Positions 56,335-64,000 are shown, counted from the first letter of the stretch. The stretch: 64,000 nucleotides of DNA from Flavobacteriales bacterium (GCA_947502765.1 CANNBA010000010.1:1477-65476), one strand, 5' to 3'. The notes: generated by a model from the sequence alone, not told the origin. Numbers and translations: made by a program.

Positions 56335-56826
56335 TCATGCCCAGCCCTCTCTATCTAACGACCTATATTGAATGGCTTCTGCCAGGTGTTCAGTAGTTAT
56401 TTTTTCTGATTTTTCTAAGTCGGCAATAGTTCGTGAAACTTTTAATATTCTATCATATGCTCTTGCTGATAAATTGAGTTTATCCATTGCTATTTTTAGC
56501 ATTCTTTGACTTTTTTCATCTAATCCGCAAAACTCTTGCAACTGCTTAGTACTCATTTGAGCGTTAGCATGTACTCCTTTAATTTTTTGATACCTCTCTT
56601 CCTGTATAATCCTAGCGCTAATTACTCTTTCTCTAATAGCTGCGCTACACTCTCCTTTTTTCTTGGCTGCCAATTCATCAAAACTCACGGGAGTAACCTC
56701 AACATGCAAATCAATCCTGTCCAAAAGGGGTCCAGATTTTTTATTCAAGTATTTTTGCACCATTCCAGGAGGGCATAAGCAGTCTTTATCAGGATGGTTG
56801 TAATAACCACAGGGACAAGTAACTAT
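56335..56826 (-). pseudogene. comM: C-terminal ~160-codon fragment of comM/yifB (Mg-chelatase-like AAA+ competence protein)
   Basis: CPCGYYNHPDKDCLCPPGMVQKYLNKKSGPLLDRIDLHVEV...ARAYDRILKVSRTIADLEKSEKITTEHLAEAIQYRSLD is the conserved ComM/YifB C-terminal module. In the family as I recall it, this module starts after roughly residue 340 of a protein of about 500 aa. The upstream 30 codons of the track ORF (MYLIIFIRLNKRL...) look unrelated, and no AAA+ ATPase part follows. Confidence 0.75.
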
Positions 56827-56872
56827 CTTTATAAATACCTCTAAATTAATTAGTTGATAAATAATTAAATAT

Positions 56873-56893
56873 TTTAGTCGTTTGTTTAGTCGT
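56873..56893 (+). repeat. two direct copies of TTTAGTCGT, 12-nt period, next to the comM breakpoint
   Basis: TTTAGTCGT occurs at 56873-56881 and 56885-56893. An inverted partial copy (GACTAAAA, reverse complement TTTTAGTC) lies at 57076-57083. Confidence 0.5.
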
Positions 56894-57120
56894 ATGAATA
56901 TGATTAAATACATCTTATCATGAAACTACAAAATCAAAATAGACTTAAAAAATGTAAAAGAGATAAGTTATTATTCTTTTTCAAGAATTGTATTAAAAGT
57001 ACTCCGTTGTATATACTCCCATAAAAAATCCACCTTCACAAAAAACAAATTTGAAAATAAATATATAAGAGTATGGACTAAAACATTTCGTTCCAGTTCA
57101 ATAAAAAAACTTACTCTAAT

Positions 57121-57408
57121 ATGAATAAGAAAAAACACATTCAAACAAACTTTTTCAGGTTTCTACTTGAAAAGTATTCAAATGACCACAACACTCAAAC
57201 TGACATTGAATTTGATGATGAGGTAGAAAACCCTGACGAGGAGACCAATGATGAATTACCAAAACGACTTAAACGAATGGTAGAAATTGAAGATGAGGAC
57301 CCTGAAAGAACCGAAGATGATGATGTCATAGACGAACTTGTCAAAGAATACAAAAAAATAAAAAAACAATATGAAAATCGTAGGATACCTGTCAGAAGAA
57401 AACGATAA
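57121..57408 (+). CDS. hypothetical highly charged small protein
   Basis: 95 aa with an acidic core (DDEVENPDEETNDE, EDEDPERTEDDD) and a basic tail. No family was recognised. Confidence 0.3.
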   Translation: MNKKKHIQTNFFRFLLEKYSNDHNTQTDIEFDDEVENPDEETNDELPKRLKRMVEIEDEDPERTEDDDVIDELVKEYKKIKKQYENRRIPVRRKR

Positions 57409-57628
57409 ACTTTATGATTTTGATACCCTAAGAAGACTTATAGGGTCCTCAAAATCAAAGTTACATCGTGACCTTCACAAACTTCAAAATCGTGAATTTG
57501 TGAAGTATAAAAACCAATTTCTTTATACAGAAAGAACAATGTTTGAGATAATGGAGAAAGTTCTGTTTGAGAGATTGGATAAAATTCAACATGAACATTA
57601 TGAACTTTCAAATGATAAGAAACATTGA
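57371..57628 (+). CDS. hypothetical small protein, possible winged-helix/HTH DNA-binding
   Basis: 85 aa. LYDFDTLRRLIGSSKSKLHRDLHKLQNREFVKYKNQFLY has the spacing of an HTH followed by a wing. It overlaps the upstream ORF by 38 nt in the +1 frame. Confidence 0.3.
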   Translation: MKIVGYLSEENDKLYDFDTLRRLIGSSKSKLHRDLHKLQNREFVKYKNQFLYTERTMFEIMEKVLFERLDKIQHEHYELSNDKKH

Positions 57629-57749
57629 AGACAGAATTTCCAAGAATAGAAAGAAATTAAATGAAGAAACGGATAATAAAAAGAAACAAATATTGAGGTT
57701 GAAAATACAGATTGATGAGATTAAAGTAAAACTTGAAAGATTGAAGTAA
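57567..57749 (+). CDS. hypothetical coiled-coil peptide
   Basis: 60 aa, or about 45 aa from the ATG at 57612. It has a heptad-like KKQILRLKIQIDEIKVKLERLK and again lies in the next +1 frame. Confidence 0.2.
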   Translation: MRDWIKFNMNIMNFQMIRNIEDRISKNRKKLNEETDNKKKQILRLKIQIDEIKVKLERLK

Positions 57750-57870
57750 TAAATTGAGAGTTCAAGTCTCTCCAAATAAAACTTGATATGAAAAACCCTT
57801 ACCAATATTGATAATCTGTAATCCTTAAATAATAAGGGTTAGTTGTTACTATATATAAAATCCAGTTAAT

Positions 57871-58452
57871 ATGACCATTAAAGAAACCTACCTAAGAAAG
57901 GTAAATAACCTCATCAAAGAACCTTACATTTATATATGTATCAAACCAATAAGAGGAATGAAATCACTGAACCAATTCAGGTTTTTAATTAAGAAAATGT
58001 TCAGAGAGGTTTCTAAACTCTATGGTGTGTATGAACCTCACTTACACCTAAAATATATTTCAGTAATTGAAATCAACAAATCCATTATTCTGGGAGATAA
58101 CTTATTTATGGGTAAGTTTTCTAAAACATCTAAATCTATTAATAGAAATGGTAGTGTTTCCACCAACTATTTCGATGTTACAGATAACATTGATGAATTA
58201 GGTTTTCACACACACATATTTCTACAAAAGAGATTTCATAACAATGAAATTTCTCATACTTTATTGAAACAATATATCTCCAATTGTTTTGACAAAGTGG
58301 GTATTGAAATAAATTATTATGAAAAGACAGATGAGGTTTATTCAATGAATAATTTTATCCATTATCATACAAAACAACTTCACTATCTGAATTCAGACTT
58401 TGTAATTTACAACACAACAAAATCGTTAATCCCCATAAACATTGAACAATAG
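57871..58452 (+). CDS. hypothetical protein with HUH-like motif (possible Rep/relaxase-type endonuclease)
   Basis: 193 aa. GFHTHIFLQ fits His-hydrophobic-His, and FIHYHTKQLHY about 55 aa downstream supplies candidate catalytic Tyr residues. This is motif-level evidence only. Confidence 0.4.
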   Translation: MTIKETYLRKVNNLIKEPYIYICIKPIRGMKSLNQFRFLIKKMFREVSKLYGVYEPHLHLKYISVIEINKSIILGDNLFMGKFSKTSKSINRNGSVSTNYFDVTDNIDELGFHTHIFLQKRFHNNEISHTLLKQYISNCFDKVGIEINYYEKTDEVYSMNNFIHYHTKQLHYLNSDFVIYNTTKSLIPINIEQ

Positions 58453-58486
58453 TCACATCAAGGATTTGATTGTTTAAATGTCGTTT

Positions 58487-58494
58487 TATTTTTG
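58487..58494 (+). promoter_or_regulatory. -7 promoter motif TAnnTTTG upstream of hsdM
   Basis: TATTTTTG lies 32 nt upstream of the ATG at 58527. TTG triplets at 58466-58472 could serve as the -33 element. Confidence 0.4.
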
Positions 58495-58526
58495 TATTTT
58501 TCCACCGAATATTAATTTACAAAAAG

Positions 58527-60242
58527 ATGTCTAAACACCAAGAACTTTCAAATTTTATATGGGGTATATGTGATGATGTATTGAGAGGACTTTTCAAACC
58601 TCACGAATACGGAGATGTAATACTTCCCTTTGTAGTATTAAGAAGATTAGATTGTGTTTTGGAACCACAAAAAGACAAAGTCTTAGAATTATATAACCAG
58701 TATAAAGACAAAGTCAATGACCCCACTCCAATTATATTGGATAAAATAGGAACTACTTTTTTTAATACTTCAAAGTATGACCTAAGAAGATTGAAACAAG
58801 ACCCACAAAATATTTACCTCAACTTTAATAATTACCTCAATGGATATGATGAGAATGTTAGAGAAATCATTGAGAATTTTCAATTAGAGAAACCCATTGA
58901 AAAATTAAACAAGAATAATCGTTTGTTTCTTTTGGTGGATCGGATGACTGAGGTTGATTTACACCCTGATAAAATAGATAATCGTTTAATGGGTCAAATC
59001 TATGAAGAGTTACTTCGTAGATTTTCTGAGATGTCTAATGAAACCAGTGGTGACCATTATACTCCGAGAGATGTTGTGAGACTTTTAGTTTCTCTATTGT
59101 TTTCGGGAGAAGAAGAAAACTTAAAAGGAAAAGGTGTTATTAGAAGTTTGTTTGACCCTTGTAGTGGAACTGGGGGACTTCTAACAATGGGTAAGGAATG
59201 GGTAAGAGAAAACATAAACCCTGATGTTGAATTTCTTCTATTTGGTCAAGAATTAAATCCTCAAACATATTCAATCTGTAAATCAGATATGATGTTGTTA
59301 GGTGAAAACTCAAACAACATCAAGGGACCAAGTTCGTCTCTATCTGATGATAGATTTCAAGGAATGAAGTTTGATTATTCTATAACAAATCCCCCATTTG
59401 GGGTGAGTTGGAAGTCTGAACAAGAATTCGTTGAAAACGAAAGTCAAAATCCTCATGGTAGATTTTTTGTCGGAACACCAAGGGTTTCCGATGGTTCATT
59501 ATTGTTCTTACAACACCTCATCTCAAAAATGGAAGATAAGGGAAGTAGAATAGGAATTGTGTTTAACGGGTCCCCATTATTTAGTGGTGATAGTGGTTCG
59601 GGAGAAAGTGAAATTAGAAAATGGATTATTGAAAACGATTGGTTGGAGTGTGTAGTTTCTTTACCTGACCAACTTTTCTTCAACACTGGTATTTCTACAT
59701 ATTTATGGATTGTAACTAACAAAAAGAAAAAGAATAGAAAAGGAAAGGTTCAATTAATAGATGGTAGTAGTTTTTATGTTCCTATGAAAAAGAGTTTAGG
59801 TTCAAAGAGAAAAATGATTTCAGAAAGTCAATTAACAGAACTGACCAATTCTTATAGTAAGTTTATAGAAAACAAACATTCAAAGATTTTTCCAAATCAG
59901 TATTTCGGATATACAAAAGTAACAATTGAACAACCTACAAAAGATGAAAAAGGAAAGGTTCTTAAAGATAAATCAGGAAATATAAAACCAAATAATTCTC
60001 TAAGAGATTACGAAAGAGTTCCATTGTTAGAGAATGTAGATGAGTATTTTGAAAGAGAAGTAAAACCTCATATTCCTGATAGTTGGATGGATAGAGATAA
60101 AGACAAGGTAGGATATGAAATCAATTTTTCGAAGTATTTCTATCAATATAAATCGTTGAGGTCTTTGAAAGAAATTACCCAAGAATTGATTAAAATAGAA
60201 AAAGAAAGTGAAGGTTTATTCAATCAAATTATTAATGAATAA
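58527..60242 (+). CDS. hsdM: type I restriction-modification system methyltransferase subunit
   Basis: Start at ATG 58527 (MSKHQELSNFIWGICDDVLRG, the HsdM N-terminal pattern). It has SAM motif I FDPCSGTGGLL and catalytic motif IV ITNPPFG. Confidence 0.9.
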   Translation: MSKHQELSNFIWGICDDVLRGLFKPHEYGDVILPFVVLRRLDCVLEPQKDKVLELYNQYKDKVNDPTPIILDKIGTTFFNTSKYDLRRLKQDPQNIYLNFNNYLNGYDENVREIIENFQLEKPIEKLNKNNRLFLLVDRMTEVDLHPDKIDNRLMGQIYEELLRRFSEMSNETSGDHYTPRDVVRLLVSLLFSGEEENLKGKGVIRSLFDPCSGTGGLLTMGKEWVRENINPDVEFLLFGQELNPQTYSICKSDMMLLGENSNNIKGPSSSLSDDRFQGMKFDYSITNPPFGVSWKSEQEFVENESQNPHGRFFVGTPRVSDGSLLFLQHLISKMEDKGSRIGIVFNGSPLFSGDSGSGESEIRKWIIENDWLECVVSLPDQLFFNTGISTYLWIVTNKKKKNRKGKVQLIDGSSFYVPMKKSLGSKRKMISESQLTELTNSYSKFIENKHSKIFPNQYFGYTKVTIEQPTKDEKGKVLKDKSGNIKPNNSLRDYERVPLLENVDEYFEREVKPHIPDSWMDRDKDKVGYEINFSKYFYQYKSLRSLKEITQELIKIEKESEGLFNQIINE

Positions 60243-60244
60243 TA

Positions 60245-61174
60245 ATGAAATTATACAACATAAAAGATAAAAAGTTACTTCCTGTTTTTTCTGATAATTT
60301 TAAGTTGGAAAAAGAAATTCAAGAATTAGTTGAAAACAATTTGAAAGAGTTGTTCAACCTTGAATTGGTAAAAACCGAATTCACTATTCGAAATTTCAGA
60401 ATAGACACATTGTGTTTTAATAAAGAAAACAAATCTTTTGAAATAATAGAATATAAAAGAGAAAGAAACTTTTCGGTAATAGACCAAGGTTACACATATC
60501 TTTCATTAATGTTAAATAATAAATCTGATTTCATTTTAGAGTATAATGAAAACAATAATGAGACATTGAAAAGAGATGATATTGATTGGACCCAGTCAAG
60601 AGTTAGGTTTATTTCACCTCACTTTACTGAATATCAAAAGAACTCAATTAATTTCAAAGATGTTCCTTTTGAACTATGGGAGATAAAAAAATACGATAAT
60701 AGTATGATTGGTTTAATTCAACATAAGACCTCATCAGAAGAAAGTATTTCAACAATTCAAACTGATACGGAGAATTTAGTTAGTTCGGTTACACGAGAAA
60801 TTAAAGTTTATTCCGAAGAATATCACTTCACTAAAAACAAGAAAAGAGATGAAAGGGTAATAGAACTATATAAATCAATAAAAGAACGAATAACAAATTT
60901 AGGTGACGATATTGATATTATTCCAAGAAAGGAATACGTTGGATTTAGAAGAAAAAGACCTTTCACTGATATAGTGTTTTATACTGAACATCTCCGAATT
61001 TTGATTAATATGAAGAAAGGTGAATTAGATGACCCTAAACATATTTGTAAAGATATGAGTGTTCAGGGACACTGGGGAAATGGAGATTATGAAATAAGAT
61101 TAACTCCCCAAGATGACCTTGAATATACAATGTTTCTCATTCACCAATCTTATAAAAAACAAGATAAAGTATGA
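60245..61174 (+). CDS. hypothetical protein: N-terminal PD-(D/E)XK-like nuclease motif plus C-terminal DUF5655-like region
   Basis: 309 aa. The order E24 ... RID54TL ... E69-Y-K71 (FEIIEYK) fits the D...(D/E)xK arrangement. The C-terminus YVGFRRKRPFTDIVFYTEHLRILI...GHWGNGDYEIRL...FLIHQSY resembles DUF5655. It lies 2 nt after the hsdM stop, and its own stop overlaps the hsdS start (ATGA). Confidence 0.6.
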   Translation: MKLYNIKDKKLLPVFSDNFKLEKEIQELVENNLKELFNLELVKTEFTIRNFRIDTLCFNKENKSFEIIEYKRERNFSVIDQGYTYLSLMLNNKSDFILEYNENNNETLKRDDIDWTQSRVRFISPHFTEYQKNSINFKDVPFELWEIKKYDNSMIGLIQHKTSSEESISTIQTDTENLVSSVTREIKVYSEEYHFTKNKKRDERVIELYKSIKERITNLGDDIDIIPRKEYVGFRRKRPFTDIVFYTEHLRILINMKKGELDDPKHICKDMSVQGHWGNGDYEIRLTPQDDLEYTMFLIHQSYKKQDKV

Positions 61175-62463
61175 GAAAGACCTATTCGAAATATAAGTCT
61201 TCGGGAGTTGAATGGATTGGTGAGATACCTGAAAATTGGGATTTTATTCGATTAAAACACGAATATAAAATCCAAAAAGGAAAAATACCTAAAATTATCT
61301 TTGAAGAACACAAAGAAGACCATGTTCCCTATCTATCAATGGATGTAATCAGAGGTTCTCAAACAATTGGTTATGTTCATAATGAAGATGGGGTTTATGT
61401 TTATAAAGGACAGGTCTTGATTTTATGGGACGGTTCTAATTCGGGAGAAATATTTAAGGTTGAAAAGGAAGGAATACTCTCTTCAACAATGGGTGTTTTA
61501 AACAAAATAGGAAACCAATTAAATGAAGATTTTTCATTTTATCAGTTAAAATCATTTGAACCTGAAATTAGAAATAACACCAATGGTATGGGAATTCCTC
61601 ATGTCGATGGTTCCTATGTTCGTAGTTTACCTCTATTTGTCCCCCCCCTTACCGAACAAGAACAGATTGTAAAATATTTAGACGAGAAGACTACACAGAT
61701 TGACAACCTAATATCTATAACAGAAGACAAAATAGACCTCTTAAAACAAAAGAGAACCTCACAGATTAATCAAGTTATAACAAAGGGTTTGAATAAAGAA
61801 GTTAAACTAAAAGATAGTGGGGTTGAATGGATTGGAAAAATACCTAATCATTGGGATAGAGTTTGTGTAAAAAGACTTGTATCAACAAAATTGTGTGATG
61901 GACCACATATTACCCCAAACTTTATTGACACTGGTGTTCCATTTATTTCTGTCGAAAGTATCAAAGATGATAAAATTGATTTTGATTTTTTAAGAGGATA
62001 TATTAGTAAGGAGGATGACATTGAATTTTCAAAAAAAACAAAACCTGAAAAAGATGATATTTTACTTGTTAAATCGGGTTCTACAACTGGTAAGGTTACA
62101 ATAGTTGAAACTGATATTGATTTTAATATATGGTCCCCTCTTTGTCTGATAAGAACAAAAAAAGAAAAAGTTTTACCAAGATTTGTTTTTTTATCTATGA
62201 AAAGTGATTTCTTTCAAATCACTATTCAACAATCTTGGAGTTTTGGAACTCAACCTAATATTGGAATGGGTGTTATTGAGAATTTATTCTTAGTAATTCC
62301 ACCAATTAAGGAACAGAAGGATATAATTAGTTTTATAGATAAAGAAAACAAAAAAATAGATAATTTGATTTCAATAGAAAAACGAAGAGTTGAAACATTA
62401 AAAGAATACAGACAAAGTTTGATTTCAGAAGTTATTACAGGTAAAATAAAAGTTATTGATTAA
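61171..62463 (+). CDS. hsdS: type I restriction-modification system specificity subunit (two TRDs)
   Basis: 430 aa with an internal duplication. SGVEWIGEIPENWD pairs with SGVEWIGKIPNHWD, and LTEQEQIVKYLDEKTTQIDNLIS pairs with IKEQKDIISFIDKENKKIDNLIS. Each half is a TRD followed by a conserved helix. Confidence 0.9.
   Translation: MRKTYSKYKSSGVEWIGEIPENWDFIRLKHEYKIQKGKIPKIIFEEHKEDHVPYLSMDVIRGSQTIGYVHNEDGVYVYKGQVLILWDGSNSGEIFKVEKEGILSSTMGVLNKIGNQLNEDFSFYQLKSFEPEIRNNTNGMGIPHVDGSYVRSLPLFVPPLTEQEQIVKYLDEKTTQIDNLISITEDKIDLLKQKRTSQINQVITKGLNKEVKLKDSGVEWIGKIPNHWDRVCVKRLVSTKLCDGPHITPNFIDTGVPFISVESIKDDKIDFDFLRGYISKEDDIEFSKKTKPEKDDILLVKSGSTTGKVTIVETDIDFNIWSPLCLIRTKKEKVLPRFVFLSMKSDFFQITIQQSWSFGTQPNIGMGVIENLFLVIPPIKEQKDIISFIDKENKKIDNLISIEKRRVETLKEYRQSLISEVITGKIKVID
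61641..61648 (+). repeat. C8 homopolymer inside hsdS, at the end of TRD1
   Basis: gtc ccc ccc ctt encodes V-P-P-L. This is the longest C/G run I noticed in this AT-rich window. Confidence 0.9.
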
Positions 62464-62466
62464 ATT

Positions 62467-63105
62467 ATGAATATTGATAAAGACTTATTGGAAAAGATGT
62501 TTCCAAATTCATCAAGTAAAAAAAACACCTCGTTAAAACTTCAAAAATATGAAGATTTGGTTGATTTTATTCACGACTATCATTCTGATAGAGTGAATTG
62601 GAAACTTCCTATTTCAATTATGGGATTGAACCTTGAACATATTCAAAAAAGAAATTGTTACATAACATTGATTTTTAATCCAACCAAAGAACAAGAACCA
62701 ATAATAGAGAAGATGAAAGATTTGTCTGAACACCAGGGTGGTCATTGGTTTGGTGTAAGAATTTTTACTTTCGAAATAGTAAAACAAATATTAAATGGTT
62801 TTGATAAAAATAAATGGGAAAAACTACCTATATCAATCCCAGTTATCAAATTGAGTGAATTGGAAAAGAAAGAGATTGAAACACTATTGGGAAAAGAGGG
62901 TGGTCCTCATTCAACGATAGAGTTTTTAATTAAAAATATTAATGAAGACAATAAAAATCTTATTGTATCTCAGATATATCACATTTTAGAAGTAAGAATG
63001 ACAAGTGTTAATAGTATTCATGAACTCTTATATTATAAGAATATCCGTATTGACTATGAATTAGTAAATAACAAAGAACATTATGACGATGAAAAGTCAA
63101 ATTAA
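62467..63105 (+). CDS. hypothetical protein (no recognisable motif) between hsdS and hsdR
   Basis: 212 aa. It starts 3 nt after the hsdS stop and ends 12 nt before the hsdR start. I saw no TM segment, P-loop or nuclease motif. Confidence 0.55.
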   Translation: MNIDKDLLEKMFPNSSSKKNTSLKLQKYEDLVDFIHDYHSDRVNWKLPISIMGLNLEHIQKRNCYITLIFNPTKEQEPIIEKMKDLSEHQGGHWFGVRIFTFEIVKQILNGFDKNKWEKLPISIPVIKLSELEKKEIETLLGKEGGPHSTIEFLIKNINEDNKNLIVSQIYHILEVRMTSVNSIHELLYYKNIRIDYELVNNKEHYDDEKSN

Positions 63106-63117
63106 ATAAATGAGAAA

Positions 63118-64000
63118 ATGAATTACACTGAAAAAAACTTAGAAGACCATATTGAAACAAACCTACATAAAGTTGGTTTCAAGTCTTTGTTATATACTGA
63201 GTATGACAGAGTGAATTGTGTAGTTTCCTCAGACCTAATTCAATTTATAAAAGAAACACAAATTGATGTTTATGAAAGATTATTTGAACAATATGGTTCA
63301 GATACTGACACCAAACTCATTTTAAGACTTAATAACGAGATTTCAAGTCGTGGGGTTATAGATGTTATCAGAAAAGGAATTAAAGACCGAGGTTGTCACT
63401 TTTCACTTGTTTATTTTGAACCAAAGAGTGGTCTTAATCCTGAACATCAAGAACTTTATCTAAAAAATAGAGTTACCCTAATTCGACAAGTTCATTATTC
63501 TTCTAAGAACCAAAACTCATTGGATATGGTTTTGTTCATCAATGGTCTTCCAATAATTACAATGGAATTGAAGAACCAACTGACTGGACAAACAATTTTA
63601 GATAGTGAAAAACAATACAGATACGATAGAGATCCAAATGAACCATTATTTCAATTCAAAAGGGTATTAGTTCATTTTTGTTGTGATAATGATAGAGTAT
63701 CTATGACAACAAGATTGATGGGTGGAAAAACAAAGTTTTTACCTTACAATAAAGGAATAGAAAATCCTATAAACCCAAGTGGTTTGAAGACATCTTATTT
63801 GTGGGAAGAGATACTTACAAAAGAAAGTTTATTAGATATACTTGAAAACTTTGTTCATGTTTCAGTTGAAACCGACAAAGACTTTGACCCTAAAATTGGT
63901 AAGGTAGTAGAAAAGAAAAAAGAACTCTTAGTTTTTCCAAGATACCACCAACTTGATGTAATCAGGAAATTAAGAATTGATGTTAAAACAAAAGGTGTTG
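63118..64000 (+). CDS. hsdR: type I restriction endonuclease subunit R, N-terminal ~294 codons (continues beyond window)
   Basis: Not in the track because it is open at the edge. Translation from ATG 63118 gives MNYTEKNLEDHIETNL...SLDMVLFINGLPIITMELKNQLTGQTI...FPRYHQLDVIRKL. This is the HsdR N-terminal PD-(D/E)XK nuclease region (D..ELK) leading into helicase motif Q. Confidence 0.85.
   Translation, partial: MNYTEKNLEDHIETNLHKVGFKSLLYTEYDRVNCVVSSDLIQFIKETQIDVYERLFEQYGSDTDTKLILRLNNEISSRGVIDVIRKGIKDRGCHFSLVYFEPKSGLNPEHQELYLKNRVTLIRQVHYSSKNQNSLDMVLFINGLPIITMELKNQLTGQTILDSEKQYRYDRDPNEPLFQFKRVLVHFCCDNDRVSMTTRLMGGKTKFLPYNKGIENPINPSGLKTSYLWEEILTKESLLDILENFVHVSVETDKDFDPKIGKVVEKKKELLVFPRYHQLDVIRKLRIDVKTKGV

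Follow-up and report, generated by a model that had tools for sequence, protein, structure and literature searches.

Organization of the hsd operon

The 64,000-nucleotide (nt) stretch of Flavobacteriales DNA analyzed here (the window) ends in a type I restriction-modification (R-M) operon that encloses two additional genes. Five co-directional open reading frames (ORFs) lie on the + strand in the order hsdM, a 309-amino-acid (aa) ORF, hsdS, a 212-aa ORF and hsdR. The 309-aa ORF is called passenger 1 (P1) and the 212-aa ORF passenger 2 (P2). The same contig is found in the public assembly (L001), and its coordinates are converted to those of the window by adding 52466. The operon has the following features:

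58465..58494, + strand: Bacteroidetes-type promoter motif TTTG-N18-TATTTTTG, a consensus match
58527..60242, + strand: hsdM, methyltransferase subunit of the type I system, 571 aa counted from the ATG; left conserved arm of the variable cassette
60245..61174, + strand: passenger 1, PDC-S18 member, 309 aa (PADLOC, Pfam, Foldseek)
61171..62463, + strand: hsdS, specificity subunit, 430 aa with two target-recognition domains; within the variable cassette
62467..63105, + strand: passenger 2, rare family, 212 aa (AlphaFold2 model, HMMER homologues)
63118..64000, + strand: hsdR, first 294 codons, running past the window end; right conserved arm of the variable cassette

Direct reading of the sequence gave the junctions as TAA-ta-ATG (+2 nt) between hsdM and P1, an ATGA overlap (-4 nt) between P1 and hsdS, TAA-att-ATG (+3 nt) between hsdS and P2, and TAA followed by 12 nt and ATG between P2 and hsdR. 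This confirms the five-gene layout, the gene boundaries and the spacings of +2, -4, +3 and +12 nt given in an earlier reading of this DNA (the original prediction). Both passenger ORFs are real genes, because they have protein-level homologues and confident AlphaFold2 (AF2) models, with predicted local distance difference test (pLDDT) values of 83.8 for P1 and 82.3 for P2.

The type I R-M system is apparently complete and intact, as judged from the domains and motifs of all three subunits. HsdM matches the Pfam families HsdM_N (E-value 6.7e-26) and N6_Mtase (4.2e-58) and the PADLOC model MTase_I (5e-237), and contains the catalytic motif NPPF288 and the AdoMet-binding motif DPCSGTG210. HsdS matches Pfam Methylase_S in two stretches, which represent the two target-recognition domains, and PADLOC Specificity_I over residues 3-429 (1.6e-98). 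The part of HsdR inside the window matches Pfam HSDR_N (7.4e-14) and has the PD-(D/E)XK residues D136...E150xK152. The full protein, 985 aa long in L001, has the motifs GSGKS305 and DEVH411 and the domains HSDR_N, ResIII, SWI2_SNF2 and T1R_D3. The earlier description of a type I system with two extra, co-oriented and tightly packed genes inside it is thus borne out.

In the 14.5-kb L001 locus, the + strand matches the consensus TTTG-N18-TAnnTTTG in full at one place only, 33 nt 5' of the hsdM ATG, and positions 58465-58494 are plausibly the sole, putative promoter of the operon. The Bacteroidetes motif was searched for in place of a sigma-70 promoter and terminator scan, which was uninformative: it did no better than on shuffled sequence, yielding 51 sites when 56 were expected by chance.

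The exchangeable interval and its carrier element

Comparison of the window with the sister operon L014 delimits a variable cassette. The proteins encoded by the carrier backbone are 96-100% identical in the two, HsdM is 92% identical and HsdR 97%. At the DNA level, 93% identity extends from 56773 to 60249, where it breaks off seven bases after the stop codon of hsdM; it returns, at 95.8%, from 63116, which is two bases short of the start of hsdR. Between these points L014 has an hsdS of 234 aa followed by a 91-aa ORF that corresponds to the C-terminal domain of P2, and has no P1. The only residual similarity to the window within the interval is at the conserved 3' end of hsdS (72%). This shows that the entire interval between hsdM and hsdR, passengers included, was replaced as a unit between the window and L014. 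Homologous recombination in the conserved hsdM and hsdR flanks may have brought about the replacement.

The exchange of hsdS alleles in type I systems is established knowledge. The present locus resembles it in that conserved hsdM and hsdR genes flank a hypervariable middle, which differs wholesale between near-identical elements; HsdS identity drops to 33-40% in sister operons in which HsdR is still 80-97% identical. It differs in that the segment exchanged carries hsdS together with up to two passenger genes. The L014 hsdS (L014:3467-4171) encodes a half-size protein of 234 aa with one target-recognition domain. Half-size HsdS proteins are expected to dimerize and to recognize a symmetric target.

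Because a sample of loci gathered with P2 as the query is biased, a metagenome scan with the N-terminus of HsdR was performed as an unbiased test. It returned 22 loci with HsdR identities of 29-86%. P1 is present in three of these loci and a P2 homologue in none. Fourteen of the loci have an HsdR with 63% identity or more, and hsdS directly adjoins hsdR in 12 of them. In the other two, the junction between hsdS and hsdR is occupied by an acidic 113-aa ORF in L025 (L025:926-1267) and by a 99-aa ORF in L031 (L031:5665-5964). Both were tried as relatives of P2 and rejected, since hmmsearch with the P2 profile gave E-values above 2. L025 has this different passenger despite being 77% identical to the window in HsdS and 86% in HsdR. 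The junction between hsdM and hsdS holds an unrelated 312-aa ORF of no assigned function in L035 (L035:3746-4684), and in L040 a 611-aa ORF with the GmrSD-type motif DGQQR together with a 230-aa ORF (L040:931-3419). Both junctions are thus shown to accept unrelated passenger genes, and both passengers of the window are optional.

Immediately upstream of the operon lie the backbone of the carrier element and the interrupted host gene:

56335..56913, - strand: comM/yifB 3' fragment (Mg-chelatase-like), 192-aa product; from about 56779 upward the sequence is that of the element
56779..58452, + strand: element backbone, with ORFs of 95, 85, 45 and 193 aa
57121-57408, + strand: backbone ORF of 95 aa
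57371-57628, + strand: backbone ORF of 85 aa, weak winged-helix match
57871-58452, + strand: backbone ORF of 193 aa, with HxH and YHTKQ motifs

The product of the comM fragment matches Pfam Mg_chelatase and Mg_chelatase_C. A complete sister element is found in a 3.55-Mb contig (L020:8429-16921), where it is flanked by 3' and 5' fragments of comM. On its left side, the comM 3' fragment is followed by genes of 95, 85, 49 and 185 aa, whose products are 88-95% identical to their counterparts. The cargo consists of two methyltransferases and a DpnII-type endonuclease, a type II R-M system. On its right side are genes of 167 and 78 aa, a 196-aa tyrosine recombinase, small ORFs, an HNH gene and the comM 5' fragment. 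DNA identity between the window and L020 jumps at 56779 from 68% (in comM) to 90%, which marks the left end of the element. That the element is 90% identical while the host comM is only 64-68% identical implies recent horizontal transfer. The public contig of the window stops just before the expected recombinase gene.

The backbone ORFs are 88-100% identical in L014 and L020. In L009 and L013 they are 29-66% identical where a match was detected, and no significant counterpart of the 193-aa ORF was detected in these two. The cargo differs among sister elements 3' of the 193-aa gene; in L008 and a JGI contig the cargo slot holds a superfamily 2 (SF2) helicase and methyltransferases, two of them in L008. 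These form a family of small integrative elements inserted in comM, which have the 95-85-45-193-aa backbone and a small (196-aa) tyrosine recombinase in common. Their cargo is interchangeable and is type I in the window, L013 and L014, type II in L020, and a helicase with methyltransferases in L008. The 193-aa ORF has no match in Pfam, PADLOC or PHROGs. It shares with its 175-aa counterpart in L008 an HxH-hydrophobic motif (HTHIFL / HFHLFI) and the motif YHTKQ. The motifs of the 193-aa ORF resemble those of HUH replication or relaxase proteins.

Two ORFs of 130 and 98 aa without a family match lie 3' of hsdR, outside the window (66090-67002; L001:13641-14362). They differ from the ORFs of 171 and 106 aa at the corresponding place in L014, so the segment after hsdR is also variable cargo.

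The two passenger proteins

P1 is a full-length member of the catalogued PADLOC-DB family PDC-S18. It matches the model PDLC04945 over residues 1-303 and profile positions 1-301 of 302 (E-value 2.5e-123), and a second model, PDLC04946, with an E-value of 6.6e-57. The suggestion that the passengers were undescribed therefore fails for P1. It is also common, with more than 7,000 homologues among 8,000 candidates scored. A literature search found no paper naming PDC-S18, and DUF5655, the family to which the C-terminal half of P1 belongs (Pfam, 1.2e-15), was mentioned only in a single unrelated paper.

In the N-terminal half of P1, residues D54, E69xK71 and Q81xxxY85 are invariant among 27-28 sequences that are 45-77% identical to P1. 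Foldseek searches with the AF2 model retrieved NucS (2vld, E-value 6e-5) and EndoMS (5gke, 7.5e-5), both with a probability of 1.0, and the Shedu nuclease SduA (8ps5) with a probability of 0.99. The N-terminal domain is of the RecB/NucS-like PD-(D/E)XK nuclease superfamily, and its predicted catalytic residues are intact. It has the same fold and the same D...ExK and QxxxY motifs as NucS/EndoMS and SduA. Unlike NucS/EndoMS, however, P1 lacks the NucS N-terminal domain and has DUF5655 at its C-terminus instead, and unlike Shedu it does not match a Shedu model in PADLOC. An assignment of P1 as a NucS orthologue was rejected, the NCBIfam model NF002876 giving 17.8 bits against a cut-off of 252 bits and covering only residues 21-91.

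Foldseek relates the C-terminal domain of P1 to the YjbR and DUF1801 folds. DUF5655 (residues ~200-306 of P1) also forms the end of plasmid proteins annotated as DUF262 or as DUF262 with DUF1524 (GmrSD-type). Such fusions occur on plasmids of the cyanobacteria Planktothrix, Nostoc and Picosynechococcus and of the alphaproteobacteria Aminobacter and Sulfitobacter. Because it is fused to GmrSD-type proteins as well, DUF5655 looks like a module that has been recombined with different defence nucleases, and it may be a shuffled accessory or sensor domain of these enzymes.

The genomic positions of P1 and its homologues are:

Window, L013, L033, L034 and L036: between hsdM and hsdS
Acinetobacter baumannii plasmid pDETAB1: between hsdS and hsdR
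L006: 3' of hsdR
L003: 3' of hsdR and a YgjP peptidase gene, with GmrSD upstream of hsdR
L005: 3' of hsdM, hsdS, a KAP NTPase gene and one unassigned ORF
L004: adjoining an AlwI-type type IIS system
L007: adjoining EcoRV, a methyltransferase, DruA and NurA
Staphylococcus equorum plasmid: alone

In seven of the eight contexts examined outside the window, the homologue stands beside R-M genes, which makes a defence role plausible. A lack of enrichment beside defence genes, which the original prediction held would speak against it, was therefore not observed for P1. The variable position, the type II neighbours and the lone copy fit an autonomous single-gene module rather than a subunit or ward of the type I system.

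Genes embedded in defence loci have been screened before. Payne et al. (bioRxiv 10.1101/2024.01.29.577857) searched BREX, DISARM and type I R-M loci for embedded genes and derived 145 candidates from them, PDC-S18 being one. In their 'guilt-by-embedding' approach, type I R-M, BREX, DISARM and Hma loci host the embedded candidates, and the embedded genes are co-oriented with the flanking genes in 96.7% of cases. The benefit of embedding for co-expression and co-transfer is discussed there in general terms. The reasoning that embedding implies a role in defence is thus a published method. P1 agrees with these candidates as a full-length PDC-S18 member co-oriented with the flanking hsd genes. P2, for which PADLOC has no matching model, would add another and rarer family to the embedded genes.

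P2 has no match in Pfam, PADLOC, NCBIfam or PHROGs, and a word-index homology search recovered nothing but the query. An exhaustive HMMER search of 1.84 billion cluster representatives gave 10 matches, of which three are full length with identities of 32-48%, and one more homologue came from a profile search. Searches of phage and plasmid collections with tblastn and of PDB sequences with the profile found nothing. A Pfam scan of every family member gave only scattered matches to single members. The AF2 model, calculated from a 12-sequence alignment, has an alpha/beta N-terminal domain (residues ~26-118) and a four-helix C-terminal domain (~131-189), with pLDDT values of 88-96 over most of the latter. 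Foldseek found no match to it in the PDB (best E-value 0.08, TM below 0.25) or in BFVD (best E-value 0.04). P2 is therefore a representative of a very rare fold-orphan family that is not listed in current defence catalogues.

The conserved unit of this family is the helical C-terminal domain of about 85 aa, with the motif GGPxSTIExL ... IISxIYYI. It also occurs as stand-alone proteins of 71-94 aa. No conserved catalytic motif was found in the family. P2 was considered as a DNA mimic of the ArdA/Ocr type and this was rejected. Its isoelectric point (pI) is 6.15, and the family range of 4.5-9.8, which is not uniformly acidic, argues against such a mimic; Pfam and Foldseek gave no match to one either. 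The four-helix C-terminal unit may be an atypical helix-turn-helix (HTH). The sole match in a check for HTH domains, as expected of R-M controller (C) proteins and other HTH regulators, was a sub-threshold one to FUR (E-value 0.085) in one of the 12 family members, and Foldseek found no winged-helix or HTH structure.

Four alleles of P2 are found in hsd loci, all between hsdS and hsdR:

Window: 212 aa, the reference for the identities
L011: 213 aa, 40% identity; HsdR 80% identical
L013: 94 aa, 32% identity; HsdR 86% identical
L014: 91 aa, 48% identity over 54 aa; HsdR 97% identical

P2 is separated from hsdR by 0-22 nt in these alleles, and it diverges several times faster than its neighbour (32-48% identity against 80-97% for HsdR). 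The N-terminal domain is missing in L013 and L014. The occurrence in L011, L013 and L014 had suggested that P2 is a constant feature of this HsdR lineage; this was ruled out by the 22 HsdR-selected loci. Full-length P2 homologues (about 47% identical) are also found in the sister elements L008-L010 and the JGI contig, where there is no hsd gene and P2 directly follows the 175-aa backbone gene, with type II-like methyltransferases nearby. The synteny suggested that P2 is a backbone gene of the element, which was ruled out by its absence from L020 (tblastn, E-values above 0.1). As P2 is absent from most relatives and present elsewhere, it is one of several occupants of an insertion-prone junction and no part of this R-M lineage. 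A 71-aa homologue of the C-terminal domain (L017:8001-8216, L018, L019) is found on 10 contigs after unannotated genes of 568, 84 and 198 aa. It is convergent with a DHFR gene and has NusA nearby, with no restriction genes close to it.

A model of the locus and its alternatives

Taken as a whole, the locus is probably a cargo operon of a mobile element, in which the interval between hsdM and hsdR is an exchangeable cassette; P1 would be an autonomous nuclease and P2, much less certainly, a binding or regulatory protein. From 58465 onward the window is occupied by an operon with one putative promoter, carried as cargo by a small integrative element that has inserted into comM. P1 would provide a portable, single-gene second nuclease defence that is independent of the R-M system, while sharing the hsd promoter and being inherited and transferred together with the operon, and DUF5655 would be the part of it that senses nucleic acid or a ligand. 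P2 might have no enzymatic activity and act by binding or regulation on HsdR, the ATP-dependent subunit encoded downstream of it, for instance by dampening restriction upon entry of the element into an unmethylated host. If this were true, it would bear on how a type I system is established in such a host, which is speculative.

Several observations weigh against parts of this model. PDC-S18, like the other PDC entries, is catalogued as a candidate only. The four hsd contexts of P2 all came from searches with P2 itself and are a biased sample, and it is the position of P2 in these four related operons on which its proposed link to HsdR is based. In sister elements of the L008 type, P2 is convergent with the SF2 helicase gene and not upstream of it, and the 71-aa homologue of the C-terminal domain, which matches the L014 allele with an E-value of 1e-14, stands in a context that has no R-M system. 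Neither the window nor the public contig reaches the right end of the element, and no convincing pair of att direct repeats that would fix its ends was found around the complete sister element. As for the promoter, the original prediction regarded the motif 5' of hsdM as the only promoter-like one. The full Bacteroidetes-type match is indeed unique, but it is a match to a consensus, and a lone TAnnTTTG at 61296 makes internal promoters possible.

Type I R-M loci with embedded passengers are an established place to seek defence candidates, and the operon class is not new. The hsd loci of Campylobacter jejuni, which carry the extra rlo and mlo ORFs, are a further precedent. The present locus provides a natural comparison for PDC-S18, in the form of near-identical operons with and without P1, and this argues that P1 acts on its own and not in the R-M complex. 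It also shows the exchange of the hsdM-hsdR interval with its passengers, and P2 adds a family missing from the catalogues.

The best-known extra gene in an hsd operon encodes PrrC of EcoprrI. According to Payne et al. (bioRxiv 10.1101/2024.01.29.577857), PrrC hardly ever occurs other than embedded in a type I system. The window resembles PrrC/EcoprrI and RloC in having an extra gene inside the hsd operon and in the idea of a back-up for when restriction is inhibited. By analogy, one or both passengers could be toxic proteins that are held by the type I complex and freed by phage anti-restriction, leading to abortive infection. The embedded, co-oriented and tightly packed genes, the predicted intact nuclease active site of P1 and the precedent of PrrC would agree with such an arrangement, but it is very unlikely in view of the contexts in which the passengers are found. 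Homologues of P1 stand beside AlwI and EcoRV systems or alone on the Staphylococcus plasmid, settings that an effector kept inactive by Hsd proteins should not tolerate. Within hsd loci the position of P1 varies, and P1 is absent from the L014 operon although HsdR is 97% identical. P2 has no catalytic motif, occurs without hsd genes and was found in none of the 22 HsdR-selected loci. Comparison of loci gives no support, for either passenger, to the earlier suggestion of cooperation with, or guarding by, the R-M complex. P1 differs from PrrC and RloC also in not being confined to hsd loci and in having no domain in common with them. Neither passenger matches PrrC or RloC in PADLOC or Pfam, as had been noted originally, and PADLOC, Pfam and NCBIfam revealed no ABC ATPase or anticodon-nuclease domain in either.

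Several explanations compete for the role of P2. The C-terminal domain could represent a new small family coupled to ATP-dependent restriction subunits on mobile elements, in which case P2 might serve as a factor that aids establishment or alleviates restriction, or as a rapidly evolving sensor of, or decoy for, phage anti-restriction proteins. This would explain both its site 5' of hsdR in four diverged alleles and its faster evolution. Such a coupling is nevertheless given a low probability because P2 occurs elsewhere and is absent from most relatives. It is less probable still that P2 serves the mobile element itself in regulation, excision or establishment and is merely surrounded by the hsd genes. 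Every informative context of P2 belongs to this element family, and in L008-L010 and the JGI contig P2 adjoins the backbone without type I genes. However, the L020 element has no P2 homologue although its backbone is 88-95% identical, P2 was swapped together with hsdS between the 96-100% identical backbones of the window and L014, and a homologue of the C-terminal domain is found outside the element family.

P2 could also be a fast-decaying hitch-hiker in an insertion hot spot, eroding and of no selected function. The low conservation of P2 next to a well conserved HsdR, the loss of the N-terminal domain in L013 and L014, the extreme rarity of the family and the presence of unrelated small ORFs or of nothing at the same junction in relatives are all consistent with decay, for which we would nevertheless allow only a small chance. 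The truncated alleles are clean, ending 0-22 nt from hsdR, and are not frameshifted remnants, and the model obtained from only 12 sequences is confident (pLDDT 82). Moreover, at least six diverged alleles have kept an open frame and the motif GGPxSTIExL ... IISxIYYI in the absence of DNA-level similarity, implying purifying selection on the P2 protein.

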